From the IMG/VR virus record IMGVR_UViG_643348546_000001: 48,686 nucleotides of DNA; one strand, given 5' to 3'. The translations under genes were made by a program, and so were the position numbers. This stretch comes from a virus (taxonomy: Duplodnaviria > Heunggongvirae > Uroviricota > Caudoviricetes). Of the stretch, positions 1,562-20,916 are shown one piece after another (position 1 is the first letter of the stretch; each line of letters opens with the position of its first letter). The notes beneath the pieces were generated by a model. That model searched no databases, was not told the DNA's origin, and was given only the letters and a program-made list of their open reading frames with translations.

Positions 1562-2395
1562 TCAGTTAGTAACGTCGGAATCTTCATTCTCAGAATGACC
1601 CTTTCTCCAGCCCGCTGCAAATTCAGACGGTGTCTGATAATTCAGCGTGGAGTGCGGGCGGCATTCGTTATAATCCTGCCGCCAGTCATTAATAATTTTC
1701 CTGGCATGAACGATATCGCTGAACCAGTGCTCATTCAAACATTCATCGCGAAATCGTCCGTTAAAGCTCTCAATAAATCCGTTCTGCGTTGGCTTGCCCG
1801 GCTGGATTAAGCGCAACTCAACACCATGCTCAAAGGCCCATTGATCCAGTGCACGGCAAGTGAACTCCGGCCCCTGGTCAGTTCTTATCGTCGCCGGATA
1901 GCCTCGAAACAGTGCAATGCTGTCCAGAATACGCGTGACCTGAACGCCTGAAATCCCAAAGGCAACAGTGACCGTCAGGCATTCCTTTGTGAAATCATCG
2001 ACGCAGGTAAGACACTTGATCCTGCGACCGGTGGAAAGTGCGTCCATGACGAAATCCATCGACCAGGTCAGATTGGGCGCCGCCGGACGGAGCAGCGGCA
2101 GACGTTCTGTTGCCAGCCCTTTACGACGTCTTCTGCGTTTTACGCCCAGGCCACTGAGGTGATAAAGCCGGTACACGCGCTTATGATTAACATGAAGCCC
2201 TTCACGGCGCAGCAACTGCCAAATACGACGGTAGCCAAAACGCCTGCGCTCCAGTGCCAGCTCAGTGATGCGCCCTGATAAATGCGCATCAGCAGCCGGA
2301 CGGTGAGCCTCATAGCGGCAGGTCGACAGGGATAAACCTGTAAGCCTGCAGGCACGACGTTGCGACAGACCGGTCGCATCACACATCAACATCAC
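1562..2395 (-). CDS. IS3-family transposase OrfB (DDE integrase-like catalytic domain)
   Basis: 277-aa ORF with a non-ATG (GTG) start; its frame is open upstream to about 2455 and overlaps the orfA end in the -1 frame, consistent with programmed frameshifting; DDE-type motifs ([15 protein letters not shown]). Confidence 0.85.
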
Positions 2396-2418
2396 GGCTT
2401 CCCGCTTCTGGTCTGTCG

Positions 2419-2682
2419 TCAGTACTTTCGCCCAAGAGCCACCTGAAGCGCCTCTTTATCCAGCATGGCTTCGGCAAGCAGCTTCTTGAGTCTGGCGTTC
2501 TCTTCCTCAAGCGACTTCAGGCGCTTAACTTCAGGCACCTCCATACCGCCATACTTCTTACGCCAGGTGTAAAACGTGGCATCGGAAATGGCATGCTTGC
2601 GGCAGAGTTCACGGGCGGGTACCCCAGCTTCGGCTTCGCGGAGAATACTGATGATCTGTTCGTCGGAAAAACGCTTCTTCAT
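2419..2682 (-). CDS. IS3-family transposase OrfA (HTH DNA-binding, leucine-zipper-like C-terminus)
   Basis: 87-aa ORF; HTH-like N-terminus and heptad leucines ([20 protein letters not shown]) typical of IS3-family OrfA. Confidence 0.85.
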
Positions 2683-4002: not shown

Positions 4003-4758
4003 TTAAACTGCTAGTTGCAATTGCATTTCAAAGCGGTCGCGTTGTTCACAATACGCAAGAGAACCAGGGCTATTGTGTGCCTCAATCCGTTCTACCATTA
4101 ATGCTGCGCGTGTCTCTTTACTTGCAGGTGCATAAGCCCCAGACCAGGCTTTATCAATACCGATGTTTCGAGCGACGTTCGTACTATCTGCGCTGGCTAA
4201 GGGTAATTTTGTGAATATCAGCGGATTTAACATGCGCAATCCATGTAGTTTCGTAACCGGCTGACCATGCCCATCAACAATGTGACGAATCAGGTCTTTC
4301 ATTCTGGCTACCGCAAGAGTTGGGCGCTTTACGTCATAGTCGCCACAACTACCGATAGCCACTCGCGGAAACTCATTGCACAAATGAATAAATCGCTCGT
4401 CACTTTCATTCATGTGCCACACTGGAACGCCAGCTAGTTTTCCGTGAGGCCACTCATTCAGAAGCGCATCATTTTCCTCCTCTCCGCCATCAATAACATC
4501 CGGGATAATGGCAAAATCGAATCCTGGGTGATTCTTCCAGCGAGCAACAAAATCGTAGTAATCGCTCCAGTCGATTTTGTTTTTGCCAGCTGCTTTCCAG
4601 GCGGTGAATGCACCGTTGTCCAGCGCGAACGACTGACAGTATTCAGCCGCGAGATTGATCTGGCCTGAATGCGCAAAACTGATAAACGCATGTCGCCCTT
4701 TCCATGCTCTCATTGCGCACGTATCAGGAGTAATAGGCCCACCGTGGTAGTGAATCAT
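4003..4758 (-). CDS. Hypothetical protein (251 aa from the RBS-supported start)
   Basis: ORF 4003-4800; the internal ATG at 4758 is preceded by AAGGAG and sits 1 nt after the upstream gene's stop, so that start is preferred; no family recognised. Confidence 0.55.
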   Translation of the reverse strand: MIHYHGGPITPDTCAMRAWKGRHAFISFAHSGQINLAAEYCQSFALDNGAFTAWKAAGKNKIDWSDYYDFVARWKNHPGFDFAIIPDVIDGGEEENDALLNEWPHGKLAGVPVWHMNESDERFIHLCNEFPRVAIGSCGDYDVKRPTLAVARMKDLIRHIVDGHGQPVTKLHGLRMLNPLIFTKLPLASADSTNVARNIGIDKAWSGAYAPASKETRAALMVERIEAHNSPGSLAYCEQRDRFEMQLQLAV

Positions 4759-4759
4759 C

Positions 4760-5167
4760 TCACTCTCCTTTGATGCGAATGCCAGTAGCGCGGATTGCAT
4801 CGATGACTTCAGAAACTTTGTATGCCATTACCGTTTGGTAATCATCGTGAAAATCTGTTCGATGAAGCATGCTGCTACGTTCCGGGAGCAGTATTTCCCG
4901 CGCTTCCAATTCTGCAATGCGCTTTTTTGCTGCTTCCAGTGCATCCAGTAATTCCAGCACGGTAGCCGGATTAGCCTTGGCAACAAAATCCCGGACTGGC
5001 TTACAATCAATCTCCGCAATGGGTTGATACGATGTGTAGCCATGCTGTCTTGTATAACTACCGTGACGAATAACGAAAAAATCACCATTTATTTTTTTAG
5101 CCTGCCACTTATCTTCACCGGCTTTCTCTGCCGCTTCACGCAGTGCCTGAGAGTTAATTTCGCTCAC
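4760..5167 (-). CDS. Ea22-like protein (C-terminal Ead/Ea22 domain)
   Basis: 135-aa ORF; PATVLELLDALEAAKKRIAELEA and the C-terminal GIRIKGE match the remembered lambda Ea22 C-terminal region. Confidence 0.65.
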   Translation of the reverse strand: MSEINSQALREAAEKAGEDKWQAKKINGDFFVIRHGSYTRQHGYTSYQPIAEIDCKPVRDFVAKANPATVLELLDALEAAKKRIAELEAREILLPERSSMLHRTDFHDDYQTVMAYKVSEVIDAIRATGIRIKGE

Positions 5168-5385
5168 TTCGAACCTCTCTGTTTACTGATAAGCTCCAGA
5201 TCTTGCTGGCAACTGGCACAAGTCCGACAACCCTGAACGGCCAGTCGTCTTCGTTCATCTATCGGATCGCCACACTCACAACAATGAGTGGCAGATATAG
5301 CCTGGTGGTTCAGGCGGCGCATTTTTATTGCTGTGTTGCGCTGTAATTCTTCAATTTCTGATGCTGAATCAATTATGTCTGCCAT
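5164..5385 (-). CDS. DksA/TraR-family C4 zinc-finger protein
   Basis: 73-aa ORF with CCECGDPIDERRRLAVQGCRTCASC (CxxC-N17-CxxC); near-identical to the lambda gene at the same position. Confidence 0.8.
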   Translation of the reverse strand: MADIIDSASEIEELQRNTAIKMRRLNHQAISATHCCECGDPIDERRRLAVQGCRTCASCQQDLELISKQRGSK

Positions 5386-5483
5386 CTTTCATTAATCCCT
5401 GAATTGTTGGTTAATACGCTTGAGGGTGAATGCGAATAATAAAAAAGGAGCCTGTAGCTCCCTGATGATTTTGCTTTTCATGT

Positions 5484-5699
5484 TCACCGTTCCTTAAAGA
5501 CGCCGTTCAACATGCCGATCGCCAGGCTTAAATGAGTCGGTGTGAATCCCATCAGCGTTACCGTTTCGCGGTGCTTCTTTAGTACGCTACGGCAAATGTC
5601 ATCGACGTTTTTATCCGGAAACTGCTGTCTGGCTTTTTTGATTTCAGAATTAGCCTGACGGGCAATGCTGCGAAGGGCGTTTTCTTGCTGAGGTGTCAT
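5484..5699 (-). CDS. Lambda orf61-like small protein
   Basis: 71 aa from the ATG at 5699 (MTPQQENALRSIARQANSEIKKARQQF...); lambda-like position and sequence. Confidence 0.6.
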   Translation of the reverse strand: MTPQQENALRSIARQANSEIKKARQQFPDKNVDDICRSVLKKHRETVTLMGFTPTHLSLAIGMLNGVFKER

Positions 5700-5775
5700 T
5701 GAACAAGCCCCATGTCGGCAAGCATAAGCACACAGAATATGAAGCCCGCTGCCAGAAAAATGCATTCAGTGGTTG

Positions 5776-5967
5776 TCATACCTGGTCTCTCTCATCTGCT
5801 TCTGCTTTCGCCACCATCATTTCCAGCTTTTGTGAAAGGGATGTGGCTAACGTATGAAATTCTTCGTCTGTTTCTACTGGTATTGGCACAAACCTGACTC
5901 CAATTTGAGCAAGGCTATGTGCCATCTCAATACTCGTTCTTAACTCAACAGGAGATGCTTTGTGCAT
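5776..5967 (-). CDS. Lambda orf63-like protein (DUF1391 family)
   Basis: 63-aa [26 protein letters not shown]...; matches the lambda orf63 family. Confidence 0.65.
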   Translation of the reverse strand: MHKASPVELRTSIEMAHSLAQIGVRFVPIPVETDEEFHTLATSLSQKLEMMVAKAEADERDQV

Positions 5968-6128
5968 ACCGTCTCCCGTTTATTATTTATCTTCTCAGCC
6001 AGCCGCTGTGCTTTCAGTGGATTTCTGATAACAGAAAGGCCGGGAAATACCCAGCCTCGCTTCTTAACGGAGTAGACGAAAGTGATCGTGCCTACGCGGA
6101 TATTATCGTGAGGATGTTTCATCGCCAT
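5940..6128 (-). CDS. Lambda orf60a-like small protein
   Basis: 62-aa [34 protein letters not shown]... immediately downstream of exo in the early-left operon. Confidence 0.6.
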
Positions 6129-6799
6129 TGCTCCCCAAATACAAAACCAATTTCAGCCAGTGCCTCGTCCATTTTTTCGATGAACTCCGGCACCATCTCG
6201 TCAAAACTCGCTATATACTTTTCATTCCGCTCAATCACGACATAATGCAGGCCTTCACGCTTCATACGCGGGTCATAGTTGGCAAAGTACCAGGCATCTT
6301 TTCGCGTCACCCACATGCTGTACTGCACCTGGGCCATGTAAGCCGACTTTATGGCCTCGAAACCACCGAGCCGGAATTTCATGAAATCCCGGGAGGTAAA
6401 CGGGCATTTCAGCTCAAGGCCATTGCCGTCACTGCATAAACCATCGGGAGAGCAGGCGGTGCGCATACTTTCGTCGCGATAGATGATCGGGGATTCAATA
6501 ACATTTACGCCGGAAGTGAACTCAAACAGGGTTCTGGCGTCGTTCTCGTACTGTTTTCCCCAGGCCAGCGCTTTAGCGTTAACTTCCGGAGCCACACCGG
6601 TGCAAACCTCAGCTAGCAGGGTGTGGAAGTAGGACATTTTCATGTCAGGCCACTTCTTTCCTGATCGGGGCTTTGCTATCACGTTGTGAACTTCTGAAGC
6701 GGTGATGACGCCGAGCCGTAATTTGTGCCATGCATCATCCCCCTGTTCGACAGCTCTCACGTCGATCCCGGTACGCTGCAGGATAATGTCCGGTGTCAT
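6119..6799 (-). CDS. exo: Lambda exonuclease (Red alpha)
   Basis: 226-aa ORF near-identical to lambda Exo ([40 protein letters not shown]...). Confidence 0.97.
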
Positions 6800-7581
6800 G
6801 CTGCCACCTTCTGCTCAGTGGCTTTCTGTTTCAGGAATCCAAGAGCTTTCACTGCTTCGGCCTGTGTCAGTTCTGACGATGCGCGAATGTCGCGGCGAAA
6901 TATCTGGGAACAGAGCGGCAATAAGTCGTCATCCCATGTTTTATCCAGGGCGATCAGCAGAGTGTTAATCTCCTGCATGGTTTCATCGTTAACCGGAGTG
7001 ATGTCGCGTTCCGGCTGACGTTCTGCAGTGTATGCAGTATTTTCGACAATGCGCTCGGCTTCATCCTTGTCATAGATACCAGCAAATCCGAAGGCCAGAC
7101 GGGCACACTGAATCATGGCTTTATGCCGTAACATCCGTTTGGGATGCGACTGCCACGGTCCGGTGATTTCTCTGCCTTCGCGGGTTTTGAATGGTTCGCG
7201 GCGGCATTCATCCATCCACTCGGTAACGCAGATCGGATGATTGCGGTCTTTGCGGTAAATCCGGCATGTGCAGGATTCGTTGTCCTGTTCAAAGTCCATG
7301 CCGTCAAACTGCTGGTTTTCGTTGATGATGCGGGACCAGCCATCAACGCCCACCACCGGAACGATGCCGTTCTGCTTATCAGGGAAGGCGTAAATTTCTT
7401 TCGTCCACGGATTAAGGCCGTACTGGTTGGCGACGATCAACAATGCGATGAACTGCGCATCGCTGGCATCACCTTTAAATGCTGTCTGGCGAAGAGTGGT
7501 GATCAGTTCCTGTGGGTCGACAGAATCCATGCCGACACGTTCAGCCAGCTTCCCAGCCAGCGTTGCGAGTGCTGTACTCAT
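6796..7581 (-). CDS. bet: Recombination protein Bet (Red beta, single-strand annealing)
   Basis: 261-aa ORF near-identical to lambda Bet; 4-nt overlap with exo. Confidence 0.97.
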
Positions 7582-7586
7582 CCGTT

Positions 7587-7883
7587 TTATACCTCTGAAT
7601 CAATATCAACCTGATGGTGAGCAATGGTTTCAACCATGTACCGGATGTGTTCTGCCATGCGCTCCTGAAACTCAACATCGTCATCAAATGCACGGGTAAT
7701 GGCTTTTTTGCTGGCCCCGCAGCGTTGTAAATGATCGATGCAGAGCGATTCAAACAAATGCTGGGGCAGGCCTTTTTCCATGTCGTCTGCCAGTTCTGCC
7801 TCTTTCTCTTCACGGGCGATCTGCTGGTAGTGACGCGCCCAGCTCTGAGCCTCAAGACGATCCTGAATGTAATAAGCATTCAT
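7587..7883 (-). CDS. gam: Host-nuclease (RecBCD) inhibitor Gam
   Basis: 98-aa ORF matching lambda Gam ([21 protein letters not shown]...VDIDSEV); the lambda upstream extension (MDINTET...) is absent. Confidence 0.95.
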
Positions 7884-7959
7884 GGCTGAACTCCTGAAAA
7901 TGGCTGTGAAAATATCGCCCGCGAAATGCCAGGCTGATTAGGAAAACAGGAAAGGGGGG

Positions 7960-8250
7960 TTAGTGATTCAGGCCGTTACCGCGTCCGTCGAGAAAAACTT
8001 CCACGAGCAAATCACGGGTATAAGTGCGCTCGATGCCGCGATGCAGATAAAGCCGTCCGCGTAAATTAGCTGATGCAGTCCAGGTACCATCTTTGTGTTT
8101 GACCAGCATTCCTGGCATGACCGCACCTCGATTAACGGTCTGCGTTCCGTAATGTTGATGAACCATAAAAACTCCTGCCCGTAAGCTGGGCTGCTGAACA
8201 TATAAAGACTTCTGCGCGTATTCAGGCGGTGGATGGCCGCCGGTTGTCAT
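7960..8250 (-). CDS. Hypothetical protein at the kil/cIII position (start uncertain)
   Basis: ORF 7960-8370 begins with TTG; first ATG at 8250 gives 96 aa (MTTGGHPPPEYAQ...GRGNGLNH); C-terminus differs from lambda Kil (...SKSIH). Confidence 0.35.
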   Translation of the reverse strand: MTTGGHPPPEYAQKSLYVQQPSLRAGVFMVHQHYGTQTVNRGAVMPGMLVKHKDGTWTASANLRGRLYLHRGIERTYTRDLLVEVFLDGRGNGLNH

Positions 8251-8439
8251 AACTAAGCCGCCTCGTTGAAGCGACTGAGGTATGAAGTGTTGAGTTGATT
8301 TCAGCTGGTCACACCGACGTTCACGCGTCCGCTTCACCCCTCGCACTCCCCGGAGCCTGCTGAAATTCAAGCTGCGGATCTAAGCGGTCATCGCAACGGT
8401 GAATCAGGTGATTGCCGTATCGTTGTGTTGTTGCGACAT

Positions 8440-8500
8440 GGTGATAATAGCTATTGCTATTGATGATATCAATACTTATTGCTATTGCTAGATGTGTTTT
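8440..8500 (-). promoter_or_regulatory. Putative PL promoter with operator repeats (OL)
   Basis: On the minus strand: -35 TTGATA, 17-nt spacer TCATCAATAGCAATAGC, -10 TATTAT; spacer and flanks carry the TTGCTATTGCT / TAGC-N4-GCTA motifs also found in the cI-cro intergenic region. Confidence 0.55.
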
Positions 8501-8644
8501 GATATTAAATATTTGATAGCAAAAAGAATTAATTTTGTGACTTGCATCGCATAGCGATAACTGAAGCGGGGTTGTGGTGGTTTTTTGAACGGTGTGTGTG
8601 ATGAGGGGAGGCAAAAGAAAACCCGGCACGGTGGCCGGGACGTT

Positions 8645-9157
8645 TTATTTCAAAGAAAAATTATGACTAGCGTATCTTGGAAGAAATTCATATAGTGTTA
8701 ATGTCTTAACGCCGTGAGAAGCAGCCGCATCCGGGATCATTATTCTTTTTTTAGGTTTGCCACCGGATGGTTTCTCATGGGTAATAATAGTATATCCATG
8801 TGTCATCGCATGGGCTATTAAAAAAGCATCTGCTTTTTCATGGCTTGCAAAATCAAACTTTGCCTTTTCGGTAACATCTAATTTAGTTGACCAATTTATT
8901 AACTTTGCATAATTTTCTATTGAACTATGCTCATCTTCGAAGAATGATGATGGTAACTCTTCTTTAATCCATTTACACAATGGATCATCTTTTGCACATA
9001 GTTCTTTTTTTACAGCATTAATGCTATAAATCAGACCATTAATGTGTAAAGCGAGAAGAAAATCCCAAAATATTTTGCAATAATTGAAGTTATATGCAAA
9101 GTTTTTTGCCTCTATGAAGACATTACTATCAATTAAGAATTTTCCATTATGAATCAT
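8645..9157 (-). CDS. PIN-like nuclease-fold protein (DUF4411-like), predicted toxin/effector
   Basis: 170-aa ORF; N-terminal FLIDSNVFIE and later acidic/Thr positions (ADAFLIAHAMTHGYTIITHEK) fit a PIN-like pattern; overlaps the upstream gene's stop by 4 nt; very AT-rich. Confidence 0.6.
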   Translation of the reverse strand: MIHNGKFLIDSNVFIEAKNFAYNFNYCKIFWDFLLALHINGLIYSINAVKKELCAKDDPLCKWIKEELPSSFFEDEHSSIENYAKLINWSTKLDVTEKAKFDFASHEKADAFLIAHAMTHGYTIITHEKPSGGKPKKRIMIPDAAASHGVKTLTLYEFLPRYASHNFSLK

Positions 9158-10293
9158 AGAGATTCTCGTTTTTTATAAAATTCAACAACTGTATCTGCTT
9201 TTACATTTAGCAGTACGCCTGCTTCCCTTAATGGTAATTGTTGAGACATTGCTTTGGAAATTATTATATTCGTAAGTTTTGGACTGTTACGAACAGGTAA
9301 TGTGTTAAAGAAAGAACCACCATTAGATTCTTTTTTGGGCTTATTGTAAGCTTGATCTTTAATTATCTCCAAAGTGTTTCTTTCTATCAAATCTAATTGT
9401 AACGCTTTGATTGCACAAGCGAAATCACTAACCTTAAATAACTTAGAAACCTCTTTTACTCGATAATAATTATTATCGCTGGATGCATTAAGCCAGAAAG
9501 ATTTGAAGAGATTATCAGGCATTAAGATTTCAGCAGCAACTTTATTACAAAAAGATTCTATGTTTTTTTCTGTGTCCCACCCAGAGACTCCATCGACTCC
9601 AAGCCAAAGATGAGCCACCTCATGAAATAATGTAAATACCTGCGCAGATAACGCGTCCGAGCTATTTACAAAAATGATCGGAGCAACGCTATCAGATATA
9701 CAGAAACCACGAAACTCTCGCGTGTCAAGTTTTCTTTTATTATTATTACCCACAACACCATTCTTGAAAACTAATACGCCAGTGTCTTCTATTAATTTTG
9801 CCACTTTAGAAAAATAGCTCTCAAAAGTGACATTTTTTATCTCTTTTTGTATATCAAAATGTATTGTGTTTGCTATGTCTGTAGCAACAACCTTATAATT
9901 TAATTTTCTATTAAATTTAAATTTACCAATAAAATCGAGTGGATCATCATTACCATTTTCTCTTAAATAGTCTTTGTACCACTCAAGTTTATATTCTATA
10001 TCATAGTAAACATCAAAAAAATCTTTTCCTAACTCACGGCTATTTATAGCTTGCCTTAAGTCAGGGATCTTGGGTTTGGCTGGAGTTGGTGGCGTTTCAA
10101 GAAATAAAAAACCGAAAGGGATTCCTCCAATTTTTGCCAGTTTTTCTGCTGCGGATTTACTTACCACTCCGTTAAGAAATTTATTAATCTTTTTGGGCAT
10201 GACTTGGTCAGCAAGAGTTTCGATAGAAACTCCTTGAGAATTTGCTATCCAATCAATCATCTTCCTAGACAATTGAAATTCAACCGCTGCCAT
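9154..10293 (-). CDS. HTH-domain / ImmA-IrrE-family (COG2856-like) zinc metallopeptidase protein
   Basis: 379-aa ORF; HExxH motif (FHEVAHLWLG) in the middle, HTH-like N-terminal segment; AGGTGA RBS 4 nt before the ATG; very AT-rich. Confidence 0.65.
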   Translation of the reverse strand: MAAVEFQLSRKMIDWIANSQGVSIETLADQVMPKKINKFLNGVVSKSAAEKLAKIGGIPFGFLFLETPPTPAKPKIPDLRQAINSRELGKDFFDVYYDIEYKLEWYKDYLRENGNDDPLDFIGKFKFNRKLNYKVVATDIANTIHFDIQKEIKNVTFESYFSKVAKLIEDTGVLVFKNGVVGNNNKRKLDTREFRGFCISDSVAPIIFVNSSDALSAQVFTLFHEVAHLWLGVDGVSGWDTEKNIESFCNKVAAEILMPDNLFKSFWLNASSDNNYYRVKEVSKLFKVSDFACAIKALQLDLIERNTLEIIKDQAYNKPKKESNGGSFFNTLPVRNSPKLTNIIISKAMSQQLPLREAGVLLNVKADTVVEFYKKRESL

Positions 10294-10422: not shown

Positions 10423-11115
10423 CTACCCATGCTTTCTATATGTCTGCGGCATGCTCCCGATGACTTTCCCGAAGATGAACACGCGGTTCATCTCGTCTTT
10501 CTCGATCGGGTCCCACGGTGAGTAGCTCTTGTTATCAGAGATAACCAGCAGCTTATCCTTCATCATTTGCAGGCGTTTTACATGGGCGGTGTCGTCATAC
10601 AGAAACGCATAGATACCATCACCGTCGAAAGATTTAACCGTGATATCAACGAACAGCAGATCACCTGGTTCGATCGTTCCTGACATGCTGTCACCACGCA
10701 CGTTAATGATGCGGATATTTTCCGCCTTCCTGCCATCGAACATGTGACGAGCATCGTCAAACGAGTATTCAACCGAGCGTAGAACTTCTACAAACTCACG
10801 GTTGATTACACCCGGCCCGGCACTGACTTCTATATCAAGAACGTCAATTTTGAAGTATTTGGAATGGCTGACAGCAGGCTTCCCTGATTGTTGACCGTCA
10901 TTTCTCATCGGGCCTATGCCTGAAGAGAGCCATTCTGTTCGAACACCCAATGCATTAGCTATTTCAACAATTTTTGTTGAGCCGCGCGCGTTGCCGCTTG
11001 TCAGTCTCCAGATTGTGGGTTGAGCTACGCCAGACGCCTTTGCAAGAGCGCCTTGAGACATTCCAGATTGTTCCATCGCTAGATTTAAGCGATCAGCAAG
11101 AGTTTCTTTTTTCAT
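10423..11115 (-). CDS. cI: CI-like prophage repressor (HTH + S24 LexA-like autopeptidase domain)
   Basis: Start assigned to the ATG at 11115 (the longer ORF starts with TTG); N-terminal HTH (LADRLNLAMEQSGMSQGALAKASGVAQPTIWRL), C-terminal Ser/Lys dyad context (RGDSMSGTIEPGDLLFVD ... KRL); not lambda cI by sequence; mRNA appears leaderless from PRM. Confidence 0.85.
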   Translation of the reverse strand: MKKETLADRLNLAMEQSGMSQGALAKASGVAQPTIWRLTSGNARGSTKIVEIANALGVRTEWLSSGIGPMRNDGQQSGKPAVSHSKYFKIDVLDIEVSAGPGVINREFVEVLRSVEYSFDDARHMFDGRKAENIRIINVRGDSMSGTIEPGDLLFVDITVKSFDGDGIYAFLYDDTAHVKRLQMMKDKLLVISDNKSYSPWDPIEKDEMNRVFIFGKVIGSMPQTYRKHG

Positions 11116-11225
11116 AAGTTTTAATTTATACGCTTGCGTATTGATGGTCAAAACACGTTTTGCTATTGCTTGGATTAATACGCATTGCTATTATTCATTC
11201 ATTGCAATACCAATAGGAATTGATA
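11116..11225. promoter_or_regulatory. Divergent PRM/PR promoters with operator repeats (OR)
   Basis: PR (plus strand): -35 TTGCTT 11166-11171, 17-nt spacer, -10 TATTAT 11189-11194. PRM (minus strand): -35 TTGACC (11144-11149), 17-nt spacer, -10 TAAATT (11122-11127), placing the transcript start about at the cI ATG. Palindrome TACGCTTGCGTA 11129-11140 and TTGCTATTGCT-type repeats. Confidence 0.6.
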
Positions 11226-11453
11226 ATGACAAATCAAACCATTCAACTCGCAATCAGTATTACAGGCAGTCAAAAACGACTGGCAGATCTATGCGGTGTA
11301 GCCCAACCCACAGTTTGGCGTTGGCTACACGGTGGCGGAATTGATGCCCGCTATGTAATGAAAATTGTCTCAGCCACTGGTGGAAAGATTAAACCAGCAG
11401 ATATTCGTCCCGACCTCGCACCATTGTTTAACGCGAGTAATTCTGCCGCCTAA
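11226..11453 (+). CDS. cro: Cro/YdaS-like HTH regulator
   Basis: ATG at 11226 after AGGA; HTH-like QKRLADLCGVAQPTVWRWLHGG; first gene of the rightward operon opposite the repressor. Confidence 0.8.
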   Translation: MTNQTIQLAISITGSQKRLADLCGVAQPTVWRWLHGGGIDARYVMKIVSATGGKIKPADIRPDLAPLFNASNSAA

Positions 11454-11477
11454 ACTGCGGCGTTAACTGATAAGGCA

Positions 11478-12023
11478 ATGACTATGCAACCACTTACATA
11501 CCAACAGACTAGCGGATTTAGCCCGACTGCGGTGATAAATCGTTCTCAAACAAAACAGGTGGCAGGCCACGAAAAAATCCGTGATGCCGTCCGCGCCTGG
11601 TCGGCTGTAGATAATCAGGATGTCGTTGCCACACTCATTGTGAATGAGTATCGGGAGCAGGGCGGCGGCACCATCGATTTCCCTGATGATGTCAGCCGTG
11701 CACGCCAGAAGCTGTTCCGCTTCCTCGATAACAAATTCGATTCTGAAAAATACCGAAATAACGTGCGTGAACTGACCCCGGCAATTCTGGCGGTACTACC
11801 GCTGGAATATCGCGGTTACCTGGTTGAGCAGGATAGCTTCATGGCTAGGTTGGCTGAAATGGAAAAGGAACTCAGTGAGGCAAAACAGGCTGTCATTCTC
11901 AACGCACCACGCCACCAGAAACTGAAGGAAATTAGTGAAGGTATTGTATCGATGTTTCGTGTGGACCCAGATCTGGCTGGTCCATTGATGGCGATGGTTA
12001 CTACCATGCTGGGGGCGATATGA
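11478..12023 (+). CDS. YdaT-family protein (CII-position regulator)
   Basis: 181-aa ORF; NEYREQGGG...RELTPAILAVLPLEYR parallels remembered Rac YdaT (EEYLRQGGG...QKLIPAILAILPRELR). Confidence 0.6.
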   Translation: MTMQPLTYQQTSGFSPTAVINRSQTKQVAGHEKIRDAVRAWSAVDNQDVVATLIVNEYREQGGGTIDFPDDVSRARQKLFRFLDNKFDSEKYRNNVRELTPAILAVLPLEYRGYLVEQDSFMARLAEMEKELSEAKQAVILNAPRHQKLKEISEGIVSMFRVDPDLAGPLMAMVTTMLGAI

Positions 12024-12109: not shown

Positions 12110-13039
12110 ATGGCAAACACTGCTGAGATATTCAATTTTCCAGTGCCGGATGCGGCACAAAAGGAGCCGCGCGTGGCAGATCTCGATGATGGTTATACGC
12201 GCATTGCAAATGAGTTGCTGGAAGCTGTGATGCTGGCCGGATTAACACAGCACCAGCTTCTGGTCTTCCTGGCTGTCATGCGCAAAACATATGGCTTTAA
12301 TAAAAAACTGGATTGGGTGAGCAACGAGCAACTGTCCGGATTGACCGGGATATTACCGCACAAGTGTTCTGCTGCAAAAAGTGTTCTGGTAAAGCGTGGG
12401 ATTTTGATTCAGAGCGGGCGGAATATCGGTATTAATAATGTGGTCAGTGAATGGTCAACATTACCCGAATCAGGTAAGAAAAATAAAGTTTACCTGAAAG
12501 AGGTAAATTTACCTGAATCAGGTAAGAAAAGTTTACCCAAATCAGGTAAAGGCGTTTACCCGAATCAGGTAAACACAAAAGACAAACTAACAAAAGACAA
12601 TATAAAACCTTTTTCGTCCGAGAATTCTGGCGAATCCTCTGACCAACCAGAAAACGATCTTCCTGTGGTGAAACCAGATGCTGCAATTCAGAGCGGCAGC
12701 AAGTGGGGGACAGCAGAAGACCTGACCGCCGCAGAGTGGATGTTTGACATGGTGAAGACCATCGCACCATCAGCCAGAAAACCGAATTTTGCAGGGTGGG
12801 CTAACGATATCCGCCTGATGCGTGAACGTGACGGACGTAACCACCGCGACATGTGCGTGCTTTTCCGCTGGGCATGCCAGGACAACTTCTGGTCCGGTAA
12901 CGTGCTAAGTCCGGCCAAACTCCGCGACAAGTGGACCCAACTCGAAATCAACCGTAACAAGCAACAGGCAGGCATGATAGCCAGCAAACCAAAACTCGAC
13001 CTGACAAACACTGACTGGATTTACGGGGTGGATTTATGA
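12110..13039 (+). CDS. O: Replication initiator O (chimeric: non-lambda N-terminal origin-binding domain, lambda-like C-terminal P-interaction domain)
   Basis: ATG at 12110 after GGAGGAATT; C-terminal about 130 aa match lambda O (SENSGESSDQPENDL...TNTDWIYGVDL); N-terminal half differs; iterons embedded in the gene. Confidence 0.9.
   Translation: MANTAEIFNFPVPDAAQKEPRVADLDDGYTRIANELLEAVMLAGLTQHQLLVFLAVMRKTYGFNKKLDWVSNEQLSGLTGILPHKCSAAKSVLVKRGILIQSGRNIGINNVVSEWSTLPESGKKNKVYLKEVNLPESGKKSLPKSGKGVYPNQVNTKDKLTKDNIKPFSSENSGESSDQPENDLPVVKPDAAIQSGSKWGTAEDLTAAEWMFDMVKTIAPSARKPNFAGWANDIRLMRERDGRNHRDMCVLFRWACQDNFWSGNVLSPAKLRDKWTQLEINRNKQQAGMIASKPKLDLTNTDWIYGVDL
12461..12615 (+). repeat. Replication origin: five 18-19 bp iterons (TTTACC[C/T]GAA[A/T]CAGGTAA[A/G] type) followed by an AT-rich segment
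   Basis: Iterons at 12461-12477, 12489-12507, 12508-12526, 12532-12550, 12555-12573, each an internal inverted repeat TTACC..GGTAA, then the A-rich tract CACAAAAGACAAACTAACAAAAGACAATATAAAACC. Confidence 0.85.
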
Positions 13040-13737
13040 AAAACATCGCCGCACAGATGGTTAACTTTGACCGTGAGCAGATGCGTCGGATCGCCAACAA
13101 CATGCCGGAACAGTACGACGAAAAGCCACAGGTACAGCAGGTAGCGCAGTTCATCAACGGTGTATTCAGCCAGTTGCTGGCAACTTTCCCGGCGAGCCTG
13201 GCTAACCGTGACCAGAATGAACTGAACGAAATCCGCCGCCAGTGGGTGCTGGCTTTTCGGGAAAACGGGATCACCACAATGGAACAGGTTAACGCTGGAA
13301 TGCGCGTAGCCCGTCGGCAGAATCGACCATTCCTGCCATCACCCGGGCAGTTTGTCGCCTGGTGCCGGGAAGAAGCATCCGTTAACGCCGGGCTGCCAAA
13401 CGCCAGCGAGCTGGTTGATATGGTTTACGAGTATTGCCGGAAGCGTGGCCTTTATCCGGATGCAGAGTCTTATCCATGGAAATCAAACGCGCACTACTGG
13501 TTGGTTACCAACCTGTATCAGAACATGCGGGCCAATGCGCTGACTGATGCGGAATTACGGCGCAAGGCTGCCGATGAACTGACTTGTATGACCGCGCGAA
13601 TTAATCGTGGTGAGGCGATACCTGAACCAGTAAAACAACTTCCTGTCATGGGCGGTAGACCACTTAACCGGGCTCAGGCTCTGGCGAAGATCGCAGAAAT
13701 CAAAGCTAAGTTCGGACTGAAAGGAGCCAGTGTATGA
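13036..13737 (+). CDS. P: Replication protein P (DnaB helicase loader)
   Basis: 233-aa ORF near-identical to lambda P (MKNIAAQMVNFDREQMRRIANNMPEQYDEKPQVQQ...). Confidence 0.96.
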   Translation: MKNIAAQMVNFDREQMRRIANNMPEQYDEKPQVQQVAQFINGVFSQLLATFPASLANRDQNELNEIRRQWVLAFRENGITTMEQVNAGMRVARRQNRPFLPSPGQFVAWCREEASVNAGLPNASELVDMVYEYCRKRGLYPDAESYPWKSNAHYWLVTNLYQNMRANALTDAELRRKAADELTCMTARINRGEAIPEPVKQLPVMGGRPLNRAQALAKIAEIKAKFGLKGASV

Positions 13738-14027
13738 CAGGCAAAGAGGCAATTCTTCACTACCTGAAAACGCACCGGACTTTCTGCGCGCCGGATGTAG
13801 CTGCGGCAACAGGCGTGACTGTAACCAGCATCAATCAGGCAGCAGCCAAAATGGCACGGGCAGGAATCCTGGTCGTTGATCGCAAGGTCTGGCGAACGGT
13901 GTATTACCGGTTCGCTACCAGGGAGGAGCGGGAAGGAAAGGTGAGCACGAACCTGATTTTCAAGGAGTGTCGCCAGAGTGCCGTGATGAAACGGGTATTG
14001 ATGTTTTGGGGGAGGGGAGGGGTATAA
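13734..14027 (+). CDS. ren: Ren exclusion protein
   Basis: 97-aa ORF matching lambda Ren (MTGKEAI.HYL.TH..FCAPDVAA.TG.TVTSINQAAAKMARAG...). Confidence 0.9.
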   Translation: MTGKEAILHYLKTHRTFCAPDVAAATGVTVTSINQAAAKMARAGILVVDRKVWRTVYYRFATREEREGKVSTNLIFKECRQSAVMKRVLMFWGRGGV

Positions 14028-17401: not shown

Positions 17402-17486
17402 AGTCAGAGATAACAATCAACTAATACTGTTTTATTGATTTTTGCTTGTAATTGGCGTTCTGGTCTGATTTTTGTGGAGTAAGTTG

Positions 17487-17870
17487 ATGCGTGATATTCA
17501 GATGGTTCTTGAGCGTTGGGGAGCGTGGGCGGCTAATAATCATGAAGATGTGACCTGGTCGTCCATTGCCGCCGGTTTTAAGGGATTAATTACTTCAAAA
17601 GTAAAATCTCGCCCGCAATGTTGTGACGATGACGCTATGATCATTTGCGGGTGCATGGCCCGTCTGAAAAAGAACAACAGCGATTTGCACGATTTATTAG
17701 TAGATTATTATGTAGTCGGTATGACATTCATGTCACTGGCAGGTAAGCATTGCTGCTCTGATGGTTATATCGGGAAAAGGTTACAGAAGGCTGAGGGCAT
17801 AATTGAAGGGATGTTAATGGCATTAGATATCCGGTTAGAGATGGATATCGTTGTTAATAACTCTAATTAA
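17487..17870 (+). CDS. Q: Late-gene antiterminator Q (phage 82 / QuuD type)
   Basis: Start at the ATG at 17487; [26 protein letters not shown]... matches remembered DLP12 QuuD; cysteine-rich zinc-binding region. Confidence 0.9.
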
Positions 17871-18059: not shown

Positions 18060-19157
18060 TTAGAACTGGTAAACCAGACCTACAGCAACGATGTCATCAG
18101 TGCTTACACCGAGTGCTTTAGTGAAGTCATTTTTGTCAAGCAGGTTGATTTTGTAATCAACGAAAGTAGACATATTTTTGTTGAAGTAATAGGTTGCACC
18201 TACATCAACATATTTGACTAAGTCCTGATCGCCCCATACTCCAAGATCCTTACCTTTAGATTGCAGGTAAGCAACGGACGGACGCAGACCGAAATCGAAC
18301 TGATATTGTGCAACAGCTTCGAAGTTTTGGGCTTTATTAGCAACGAAGTGATCAGCAAATACAGTCATATTCTGGGTTTCAGAATAGGTAGTGGCCAGGT
18401 AAATGTTGTTAGCGTCATATTTCAGACCTGCGGCCCAAACTTCTGCATTTTTACCGGAAGCAAATACTTCAGGAAGAACTTTCCCTGCATTAACTTGAGT
18501 GTCGGTACGATCAGATTTTGCATAAGTTGCACCGATACCGAATCCTTCGTATTCATAGGTAGCAGAGAAACCGAAGCCATCACCGTTACCTTCGGTGTAG
18601 TTATCGAAATCGCTACGATCGTTTTTGCCTTGGTACTGAGCAGCAAAGTTCAGACCATCAACCAGGCCAAAGAAGTCGTTGTTACGATAGGTTGCAACAC
18701 CAGTGGTGCGACCAGTCATGAACACATCTGTTTGGGTCCAGGTATCGCCACCGAATTCTGGCAGAACGTCAGTCCACGCACCGATGTCGTATGCTACACC
18801 GTAGTTACGGCCGTAATCGATTGAGCCGTAGTCACCGAATTTCAGGCCTGCAAATGCAAGACGGGTTTTGTCTTTGGAGGAACCTTGAGATTCAGCGCGG
18901 TTGCCTTTGAATTCATATTCCCACTGACCGAAACCAGTCAGTTGATCGTTGATTTGGGTTTCACCTTTGAAGCCAAGACGGGCATAAGTAGTATCACCAT
19001 CATCTGCATCATTAGAGGAGAAGTAGTGCTTAGCATTAACTTTCCCGTACAGATCCAGCTTGTTACTGTCTTTATTATAAATTTCAGCTGCCTGAGCAGA
19101 CATCGCCATCAGTACTGATGCAGCTACAGCAGAAATTGCCACTGTTAATTTTTTCAT
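18060..19157 (-). CDS. nmpC: Outer-membrane general porin (OmpC/PhoE family; nmpC / phage Lc type)
   Basis: 365-aa ORF with signal peptide ([23 protein letters not shown]), AEIYNKD start of the mature protein, C-terminal aromatic VGLVYQF; lies between Q and the lysis genes on the opposite strand with an AT-rich promoter region 19158-19700. Confidence 0.92.
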
Positions 19158-19745: not shown

Positions 19746-19961
19746 ATGAAATCCATGGATAAGTTAACAACGGGTGTCGCCTATGGCACCTCAGCAGGTA
19801 GTGCCGGTTACTGGTTTTTACAGCTGCTCGATAAAGTCACGCCCTCACAGTGGGCAGCAATAGGTGTGCTGGGTAGCCTGGTATTTGGCCTGCTGACGTA
19901 CCTGACAAACCTTTATTTCAAGATTAAAGAAGATAAGCGCAAGGCTGCGAGAGGTGAATAA
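19746..19961 (+). CDS. S: Holin, phage 21 S (pinholin) type
   Basis: Start at the ATG at 19746 (MKSMDK...); matches remembered S21/EssD ([13 protein letters not shown]...[10 protein letters not shown]...[18 protein letters not shown]). Confidence 0.9.
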
Positions 19962-20458
19962 TGCCTCCATCATTACGAAAAGCCGTTGCTGCTGCTATTG
20001 GTGGCGGAGCAATTGCTATAGCATCAGTGTTAATCACTGGCCCAAGTGGTAACGATGGTCTGGAAGGTGTCAGCTACATACCATACAAAGATATTGTTGG
20101 TGTATGGACTGTATGTCACGGGCATACAGGAAAAGACATCATGCTCGGTAAAACGTATACCAAAGCAGAATGCAAAGCCCTCCTGAATAAAGACCTTGCC
20201 ACGGTCGCCAGACAAATTAACCCGTACATAAAAGTTGATATACCGGAAACAACGCGCGGCGCTCTTTACTTGTTCGTTTACAACGTGGGCGCTGGCAATT
20301 TCAGAACATCGACGCTTCTTCGCAAAATAAACCAGGGCGATATCAAAGGCGCATGTGATCAGCTACGTCGCTGGACATATGCTGGCGGTAAGCAATGGAA
20401 AGGTCTCATGACTCGTCGTGAGATTGAGCGTGAAATCTGTTTGTGGGGTCAGCAATGA
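19961..20458 (+). CDS. R: SAR endolysin (phage 21 R-type lysozyme with N-terminal signal-anchor-release segment)
   Basis: 165-aa ORF; Gly/Ala-rich weakly hydrophobic N-terminus ([20 protein letters not shown]) then a lysozyme domain; adjacent to the holin. Confidence 0.9.
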
Positions 20459-20916
20459 ACAGAGTAACCGCGATTATCTCCGCTCTGGTTATCTGCATCA
20501 TCGTTTGCCTGTCATGGGCTGTTAATCATTACCGTGATAACGCCATTACCTACAAAGCCCAGCGCGACAAAAATGCCAGAGAACTGAAGCTGGCGAACGC
20601 GGCAATTACTGACATGCAGATGCGTCAGCGTGATGTTGCTGCGCTCGATGCAAAATACACGAAGGAGTTAGCTGATGCGAAAGCTGAAAATGATGCTCTG
20701 CGTGATGATGTTGCCGCTGGTCGTCGTCGGTTGCACATCAAAGCAGTCTGTCAGTCAGTGCGTGAAGCCACCACCGCCTCCGGCGTGGATAATGCAGCCT
20801 CCCCCCGACTGGCAGACACCGCTGAACGGGATTATTTCACCCTCAGAGAGAGGCTGATCACTATGCAAAAACAACTGGAAGGAACCCAGAAGTATATTAA
20901 TGAGCAGTGCAGATAG
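20455..20916 (+). CDS. Rz: Spanin inner-membrane subunit Rz
   Basis: Start at the ATG at 20455 ([23 protein letters not shown]...); near-identical to lambda Rz. Confidence 0.92.
20675..20857 (+). CDS. Rz1: Spanin outer-membrane lipoprotein subunit Rz1 (embedded in Rz in the +1 frame)
   Basis: 60-aa ORF wholly inside Rz; lipobox LVVVGC and proline-rich stretch [15 protein letters not shown]; matches lambda Rz1. Confidence 0.9.

Follow-up and report, generated by a model that had tools for sequence, protein, structure and literature searches.

A lambdoid early-left region with neither N nor put detected, and a conserved structured RNA upstream of its kil-family gene

N-dependent antitermination is the textbook form of early control in lambdoid phages, and the put RNA of HK022 is one well-studied exception. 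Two N-less lambdoid phages already known, HK022 and HK639, use put. The HK022 RNA works via the zinc-binding domain of the RNA polymerase beta-prime subunit and thereby suppresses terminators downstream. LLS has also been reported to lack an N homologue (PMC12315714). This study concerns the early-left region of a 48,686-nt virus genome (IMG/VR record IMGVR_UViG_643348546_000001; this whole stretch is called the window), and in particular the 757-bp interval 7884-8640, upstream of gam. The window represents the genome of a Bievrevirus-type lambdoid phage or prophage, and its nearest records are the Escherichia phages PhiR70_1, PhiR30_1, 4A7/4C10, 1W/3W, and Perceval. An earlier note, made from the sequence alone, had described this interval as devoid of N, cIII, and lambda Kil and had suggested that leftward early transcription may be N-independent, perhaps through cis-acting RNA as in HK022. 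The leftward early promoter PL is followed here by a leader of about 270 nt (8167-8437) that holds no annotated gene or feature, and then by a kil analogue, the only real gene between gam and PL. The promoter-distal part of the leader is a conserved structured RNA, referred to below as element X.

Each of the closest described systems shares part of this arrangement. As in lambda, P22, 21, and phi80, the locus lies after PL, where N is expected, and the genome has a BTP1-type OL/PL region, lambda-like gam-bet-exo genes, and Q. Unlike those N/nut phages, it has no N, no boxA or boxB in either early transcript, and no counterpart of nutR/tR1 or tR2. In BTP1, the homologous OL/PL drives nutL (boxA CGCTCTTTAAC, boxB GCGCTGACAAAGCGC) and a P22-type N with the motif GNAKTRRHERRRK, whereas here the leader and kil follow. 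HK022, with putL and putR, and HK639, with a put-like RNA, are likewise N-less lambdoid phages with a non-coding RNA transcribed from or near the PL start. However, the window lacks the put motifs and stems, Nun, and a second copy of the RNA in the PR operon. The reading favored here, with a probability of about one half, is that this lineage has no dedicated early antiterminator, since the terminator-bearing lambda modules are absent, and that X exerts a post-initiation control.

The PL-gam interval and the search for antiterminators

The features from PL to the end of kil are as follows, in the order of leftward transcription.

8444-8500, minus strand: OL operator repeats of the TTGCTATTGC type, overlapping PL and shared with OR
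8467-8472 and 8444-8449, minus strand: PL, with -35 TTGATA, a 17-nt spacer, and -10 TATTAT, the best sigma-70 match in the region
8287-8437, minus strand: promoter-proximal leader, specific to the N-less lineage and found only with this kil module
8167-8286, minus strand: element X, a conserved structured RNA cassette forming the promoter-distal 120 nt of the leader (136.7 bits with covariance model R2)
8284-8248, minus strand: extended hairpin H-a of X, 15 bp (CAUACCUCAGUCGCUUC-AAC-GAGGCGGCUUAGUUAUG)
8241-8225, minus strand: hairpin H-b of X (GGCGG-CCAUCCA-CCGCC)
8217-8205, minus strand: conserved motif of X, GCGCAGAAGUCUU
8191-8177, minus strand: hairpin H-d of X (GCCC-AGCUUAC-GGGC)
7960-8166, minus strand: kil analogue of the KilR/phi80-Kil family, 68 aa (phrog_294; PF27398 on homologues), with the ribosome-binding site AGGAG at 8172-8176

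The predicted PL start at 8437 or 8438 agrees with the position given in the earlier note (about 8437). It is corroborated at the sequence level by three features. The TTGCTATTGC-type repeats around PL recur at OR (11139-11215), and 8446-8536 is 76% identical to OL/PL of Salmonella phage BTP1. Relatives with a different immunity (PhiR5_1, PhiR26_1, and around half of the 61 from IMG/VR) have another sequence in place of 8439-8540, while that from 8438 downstream stays conserved; the mosaic junction at 8438/8439 therefore coincides with the predicted PL start. The distance from the gam start (7883) to the PL start is thus about 555 nt, shorter than the 750 bp previously stated, and the remainder of the 757-bp interval consists of operators, an 80-bp conserved spacer, and a bidirectional terminator.

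The kil analogue matches phrog_294, "Kil protein for bacterial septation inhibition" (E=2.4e-38, residues 60-136 of the long open reading frame), and PF27398 is recorded on nearly all of its database homologues; a scan of the local Pfam library gave no match. Its identity to HK225 Kil is 85%, falling to 41% for phi80 Kil and 36% for phage proteins annotated KilR, and the family is also found in mEp237, HK639, and Stx phages. No similarity to lambda Kil was detected (tblastn of lambda Kil, no match). The reading frame ending in GRGNGLNH, described in the earlier note as a different small ORF in the kil position, is therefore real and distinct from lambda Kil; its membership in another Kil family had been overlooked, and its start was placed too far upstream. 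Translation starts at ATG 8166, behind the AGGAG, rather than at 8250 or 8370, because protein conservation among homologues from different genera begins at MVHQHYGT, with an entirely different "extension" upstream, because PGAP and RefSeq annotate 207 nt, and because variation falls on third codon positions (8 of 9 variable sites among 6 relatives; 17 of 18 in 7960-8166 among 62 sequences). The 96- and 136-aa versions are ruled out by the onset of conservation and the pattern of variation. About one quarter of the kil third codon positions vary in the 62-sequence set, and the gene, as judged from its sequence, is under purifying selection. Its family annotation predicts that the product inhibits FtsZ and cell division. 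In gene content, this region is an ordinary lambdoid mosaic that public records already contain, if with thin annotation; several of them annotate the Kil analogue. The Rac prophage has the same toxin family, YdaS/YdaT-type analogues of cro and cII, and no N annotated in its record.

The PL-kil leader is widespread. At an identity of at least 95%, it occurs in 2230 of 5426 complete E. coli genomes (41%), O157:H7 included, and it is present in 16 sequenced phages and 100% identical in E. coli strain 203740. Because those 16 phages share the arrangement, it is not a dead remnant. A deletion scar in a defective prophage, which would have lost N and be inviable as a phage, would be in keeping with the insertion sequence in the left arm of the window and with the commonness of prophage decay, but the 16 phages, the 41% of complete E. 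coli genomes, and the purifying selection on kil leave this explanation hardly any credence.

The two halves of the leader differ in their variation. The promoter-proximal 150 nt are moderately polymorphic, with the first ~35 nt replaced in a few relatives; C is abundant and G scarce in the first 40 nt (14 C, 6 G). Covariation was sought in this half, where there is too little variation, and the only candidate pair (8353/8348) is inconsistently compensated. Just upstream of X, a slippage-prone direct repeat, CAACU/CAACA (8287-8299, minus strand; AAUCAACUCAACAC), carries a 5-nt duplication in 4 of 62 relatives.

Neither N nor its sites were found. Lambda N, cIII, Kil, Ea10, and Ral have no match in the whole 48.7-kb window (tblastn, best E >0.1); for cIII, the best tblastn match lies outside this interval (E=0.5), and Pfam gave none. 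Queries with lambda N (the sequence of its record included), P22-type N from BTP1, phi80 N, HK022 Nun, and phage 21 N returned chance-level tblastn matches across the window, with best E >0.2 besides a spurious 0.005 inside bet. PHROG and Pfam scans of 17 early-operon reading frames of the window identified Q as the sole antiterminator. The absences claimed in the earlier note between gam and PL are thus confirmed by tblastn, PHROG, and Pfam, and an N homologue elsewhere, which would have contradicted its proposal, was looked for across the 48.7 kb and not found. The lambda DNA that holds N and the region just downstream of N is also missing: lambda homology in the left arm covers 5126-7966 at 96.7% (blastn) and stops at 7966, 7 nt inside the 3' end of lambda kil.

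No boxA consensus occurs in either early operon, and the PL leader and PR region share no nut-like motif, as their best local alignment is equalled by 128 of 200 shuffles. A hairpin over the cro stop codon (GCCGC-CUAAACU-GCGGC, 11444-11463, plus strand) resembles boxB of a nutR site; it was set aside, having no partner in the PL leader and no N. It is preceded by UUGUUUAAC, which is faintly boxA-like.

The interval had also been described as free of any Arg-rich, N-like reading frame. An Arg-rich stretch does exist in the in-frame 5' extension of the kil ORF (RLRGVRGVKRTRERR), but it is not a conserved reading frame. A GTG at 8337 opens it (MKRTRERRCDQLK...), with GGGGAG 7 nt upstream and ATG at the GTG position in one relative, and its stretch KRTRERR is similar to the arginine-rich motifs in the N proteins of lambda and P22. 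Such a peptide, or a novel protein elsewhere in the window, could in principle be an unrecognized N-like antiterminator. However, the frame has a TAG stop at 8277 in 15 of 62 relatives and is shifted by the 5-nt duplication in 4 of 62, and the peptide would be without those parts of N that bind NusA and RNA polymerase. Across 50,697 phage records, no N gene is homologous to the segment, there is no boxB-like partner shared with the PR transcript, and a six-frame translation of the window contains, by chance, 20 places with 16-mers equally rich in Arg. The GTG-8337 candidate, the kind of missed frame that the earlier note had considered damaging to its proposal, was rejected on its stops and frameshifts, missing N homology, missing boxB partner, and chance frequency, and an N-like protein is very improbable.

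For the put search, putL was reconstructed from the numbering in a cryo-EM study (PMC9378689). Twelve putL and putR sequences from eight phages were collected, covariation confirmed their two-stem structure, and a covariance model (R1) was built. With filters off, the best match of R1 in the whole window had E=1.6, and none lay near PL or PR. The put motifs (CGAACGGC, GUCGG, GGCG-GG, and CAAU) and stems were not found in the leaders, and blastn-short with put gave only chance matches of 10-14 nt. Rfam 15 has no gathering-threshold match in 7800-8700, where a permissive scan gave E values of at least 0.99; over the whole window, the sole gathering match is an IS1222 frameshift element. The leader, its promoter-proximal part included, folds no better than shuffled sequence (z=-0.99 and -0.82). 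Two of the checks recommended in the earlier note, RNA folding of the leader and a search for put-like motifs, thus speak against the HK022-like route.

Element X in the kil leader

Conservation of X reaches well beyond this lineage. Only three polymorphic sites (minor allele in at least 2 of 62 unique sequences) occur in the 110 nt of 8167-8276. An exact 32-nt core of X is present in at least 120 IMG/VR contigs. It also recurs among species-representative genomes, in 12 Enterobacter species as well as one Citrobacter and one Scandinavium. Among the matches listed, X precedes kil in 69 contigs and other early-left genes in 51, mostly directly behind an intrinsic terminator. H-d is followed by the Shine-Dalgarno sequence and then by the start codon of whichever gene X precedes.

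Comparative folding supports a defined RNA structure. When 22 sequences aligned with MAFFT were folded by RNAalifold, both H-a and H-b were recovered; on this alignment, the structure is 95.2% paired, seven pairs are compensated, and covariation scores 0.227, compared with 0.094 for shuffled alignments (0 of 500). In a 40-sequence alignment that includes other genera and was fitted to model R2, H-a is 98.3% paired, and 7 of its 15 pairs show double changes, with up to six pair types at one pair; the covariation score reaches 0.328, compared with 0.107 in shuffled alignments (0 of 500), and slid controls stay at or below 0.06. The invariance of H-b in the first set is partly a product of the search pattern. 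In phi80, CobraSix, and ABTNLsp11242, however, which came from the model and not from the pattern, H-b is retained with minor changes. X is absent from RefSeq annotation and, in gathering and permissive scans, from Rfam.

The comparative evidence indicates that X is a structured RNA and not a peptide. At the base of H-a, CAUA pairs with UAUG and buries an AUG (8250). A leader peptide starting there (MTTGGHPPP...) was considered and ruled out: the downstream motif GCGCAGAAGTCTT falls into any of the three frames set by the AUG, deletions occur right after this codon (1 nt in CobraSix, 3 nt in ABTNLsp11242), and the AUG is paired in the hairpin base.

Model R2 also finds X in phages whose early control is of other types. 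In phi80 (101.9 bits), X is flanked by tL1A and by tL1B, the latter rho-dependent according to the annotation, and N and nutL lie upstream of it. HK225, with its phi80-like PL and nutL, carries X, as do HK639, CobraSix, and ABTNLsp11242, all three with put-like RNAs. No X is found by the model in lambda, HK022, BTP1, or the Rac prophage of K-12. Its presence both in a phage with N (phi80) and in one with put (HK639) means that X is not the antitermination device.

The early-left order of phi80 (N, tL1A, X, tL1B, a small ORF, kil) is the nearest parallel, with the same Kil family (41% identity) and an X homologue upstream. In phi80, however, a separate N and nutL lie upstream and X sits between two annotated terminators, whereas in the window X follows a 150-nt leader right after PL, and kil follows X without a small coupled ORF. 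An unannotated phi80 reading frame directly downstream of X (position 4127 onward; MSDLELGLKIYALWFVG...) appears to encode a small membrane protein. The frame is seen again behind X in other contigs (L101 and L157 among them), and in phi80 the annotated tL1B lies inside it.

A second parallel is Rac kilR, whose 5' UTR carries the small RNA KilS (PMC8175672). A non-coding RNA feature in the 5' UTR is common to both, and KilS shows that there is a precedent for non-coding control ahead of this toxin family. In contrast to X, KilS ends in its own intrinsic terminator, and its sequence is unrelated. Homology between the two was rejected, as model R2 finds nothing in Rac and the sequences are unrelated on inspection.

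X probably acts post-transcriptionally or in a Rho-linked manner, throttling toxic early-left genes. Two other roles for the leader have to be weighed. The first is that the 5' half of the leader, X, or both form a cis-acting RNA of a new kind, able to modify RNA polymerase or to block Rho. It would be a functional analogue of put with no similarity to it in sequence, and the source of the phage's independence from N. The leader does begin at the PL start, like putL, and stays constant while the upstream immunity module is exchanged, and the invariant loops and covarying stems of X are typical of an RNA recognized by a partner. Moreover, HK639 has a single put-like RNA, annotated only downstream of pL, so that the lack of a copy at PR is not fatal. 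However, the put covariance model has no match, the fold is no stabler than that of shuffles, and no second copy of the leader or X exists elsewhere in the window. The 5' half also tolerates a 5-nt duplication and the replacement of its first ~35 nt in some relatives, and X is shared with phages that possess N (phi80) or a put-like RNA (HK639) of their own, in most cases lying behind a terminator and not ahead of every one. On balance, a put analogue of this kind appears unlikely.

The second is that X is chiefly a module for Rho-dependent termination or attenuation, equivalent to phi80 tL1B, that keeps kil, gam, bet, and exo low; the early-left operon would then be weakly expressed by design and not freely transcribed. 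This explanation overlaps with the favored reading as to the role of X. It is suggested by where X lies with respect to the tL1B of phi80, annotated as rho-dependent, by the C-rich stretches of the leader, by the toxicity of Kil-type proteins, and by the silencing of Rac kil by Rho/NusG (PMC4150792); reported control of kilR through OxyS and nusG points the same way (PMC5793797). X is nevertheless highly structured, while rut sites are usually unstructured; tL1B of phi80 is taken from the annotation of its record; and the phage needs its Red genes expressed after induction. A predominantly Rho-dependent function is doubtful, if less so than a put analogue.

Terminators and the case for N-independence

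The lineage to which the window belongs (Bievrevirus-like, including 4A7, Perceval, the PhiR phages, and many E. coli prophages) carries a replacement of the lambda block N-nutL-tL1-ral-ea10-cIII-kil. The replacement begins at the PL start and comprises the ~270-nt untranslated leader and a gene for a KilR-type division inhibitor, followed by lambda-like gam-bet-exo. Under the favored reading, RNA polymerase would travel unmodified from PL to exo and from PR to Q, much as it does in N-independent lambda of the nin type, and Q would be the only processive antiterminator. X would act after initiation, at the level of translation, mRNA processing, or Rho access, and throttle the toxic gene behind it.

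The nin5 deletion removes tR2-tR4 and permits lambda growth without N. N-independence in such mutants comes from terminators missing between P and Q, and in the window the hairpin of lambda tR2, which stands between ren and ninB, is likewise absent. Unlike a nin mutation, however, the arrangement here is the natural wild-type design of a whole lineage, and it involves both early operons. The gap between cro and the cII analogue is 24 nt, compared with 118 nt in lambda, where rutA, nutR, rutB, and tR1 lie. A consensus scan for intrinsic terminators, a type of search in which Rho-dependent sites are outside prediction, found none between PL and kil and no strong one on the transcribed strand from PL to the exo end or from PR to Q, only weak candidates. 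We infer from these absences that no antitermination is needed. The N-independence of leftward transcription proposed in the earlier note is accordingly supported by the missing N and nut sites and the missing counterparts of nutR/tR1 and tR2, whereas the HK022-like mechanism it had offered is not.

Several observations weigh against this reading. Two terminator-like hairpins lie in the PL operon within lambda-homologous DNA, at 6036-6058 and 5445-5463 (both minus strand); the latter has 8 bp followed by a T run (TTTTTATTATT) and stands just upstream of a TraR/DksA-like gene (5164-5385). In an N-less phage, both hairpins should hold back transcripts from PL before they cover the distal left arm, so that the favored reading does not account for transcription from PL into the TraR-like gene, xis, and int. 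In addition, the long, untranslated, and partly C-rich 270-nt leader is a plausible Rho target that a phage without N would have to pass. Rac kil is silenced by Rho (PMC4150792), and the X homologue of phi80 lies directly upstream of the site annotated as rho-dependent tL1B.

If the leader or X were instead a new RNA governing elongation, as an antiterminator or a Rho gate, this would explain how the lineage does without N, Nun, and put. Either way, the arrangement represents a third and very common early design, with neither N nor put, in about two fifths of complete E. coli genomes, and it raises the question of whether these phages are terminator-free or use an unrecognized mechanism. X itself is a well-supported candidate RNA motif ahead of toxic early-left genes and may provide a handle on how prophages restrain Kil-type toxins. 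We found no published description of how common this N-less and put-less design is, nor of a leader RNA motif that is supported by covariation and absent from Rfam.

Neighboring genes and other features

The genes and sites around the interval are listed below.

6119-6799, minus strand: exo, in the left operon
6796-7581, minus strand: bet, in the left operon
7587-7883, minus strand: gam, in a short 98-aa form (PF06064, E=4.9e-64)
7884-7966, minus strand: gam-kil spacer with the last bases of lambda homology (blastn against lambda; an 83-nt match to many lambdoid phages)
8541-8620, minus strand: 80-bp spacer between the terminator and OL, kept across immunity types
8622-8639, no strand assigned: bidirectional intrinsic terminator (CCCGGC, 6 nt, GCCGGG) with T runs on both strands, from the terminator scan
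8645-9157, minus strand: gene for a DUF4411 protein, AT-rich cargo
9154-10293, minus strand: gene for an ImmA/IrrE-like protein, AT-rich cargo
10423-11151: cI repressor of the S24 type, between the cargo genes and OR/PR
11220-11453: YdaS-like cro, downstream of OR/PR, with a likely ATG at 11226
11478-12023: YdaT-like cII analogue, downstream of cro
Downstream of the cII analogue: O, P, and ren, then a nin-like region
17472-17870: Q, late antiterminator (PF06530)

In the right arm, lambda homology is confined to 12573-14000, the 3' part of O through ren. The upstream extension that gives lambda Gam 138 aa is closed off by an in-frame stop 20 codons before the gam ATG, which bears out the earlier remark that this extension is missing.

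On the other side of PL, the spacer 8541-8620 retains a mean identity of about 0.90 in 51-57 of 61 relatives, while the adjacent operators and cargo genes vary; it may serve as a recombination flank for the exchange of cargo and immunity. The terminator at 8622-8639 is predicted to end the cI/ImmA-like/DUF4411 transcript and to insulate PL. The two cargo genes (8645-10293, minus strand) have 30-37% GC, compared with about 51% in neighboring DNA, and occupy the position of lambda rexAB. The second encodes a 379-aa protein with HTH and ImmA/IrrE (M78) domains that is weakly similar to defense regulators of the CapP/RmrA type. At the same spot, relatives carry other cargo, namely ASCH and hypothetical proteins, an antitoxin gene annotated HipD (PhiR5_1), or a transmembrane protein; with such differing contents, the site looks like a hotspot for defense genes or morons.

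Further along the left arm, an IS3-family insertion sequence (1562-2877) separates int/xis from the ea-type genes, and the IS1222-type ribosomal frameshift element matched by Rfam lies at 2335-2452 (minus strand, 156.6 bits). The PL operon also includes a gene at 4003-4800 (minus strand) that matches PHROG 887, "queuine tRNA-ribosyltransferase" (E=5e-104), an unusual passenger for a lambda-like left arm. Between Q and the reading frames at 19961-20916, a 365-aa ORF lies on the opposite strand (18060-19157, minus strand). Related phages have an OmpD-like outer-membrane porin annotated in the matching part of their genomes, which suggests that this region is a candidate lysogenic-conversion moron.

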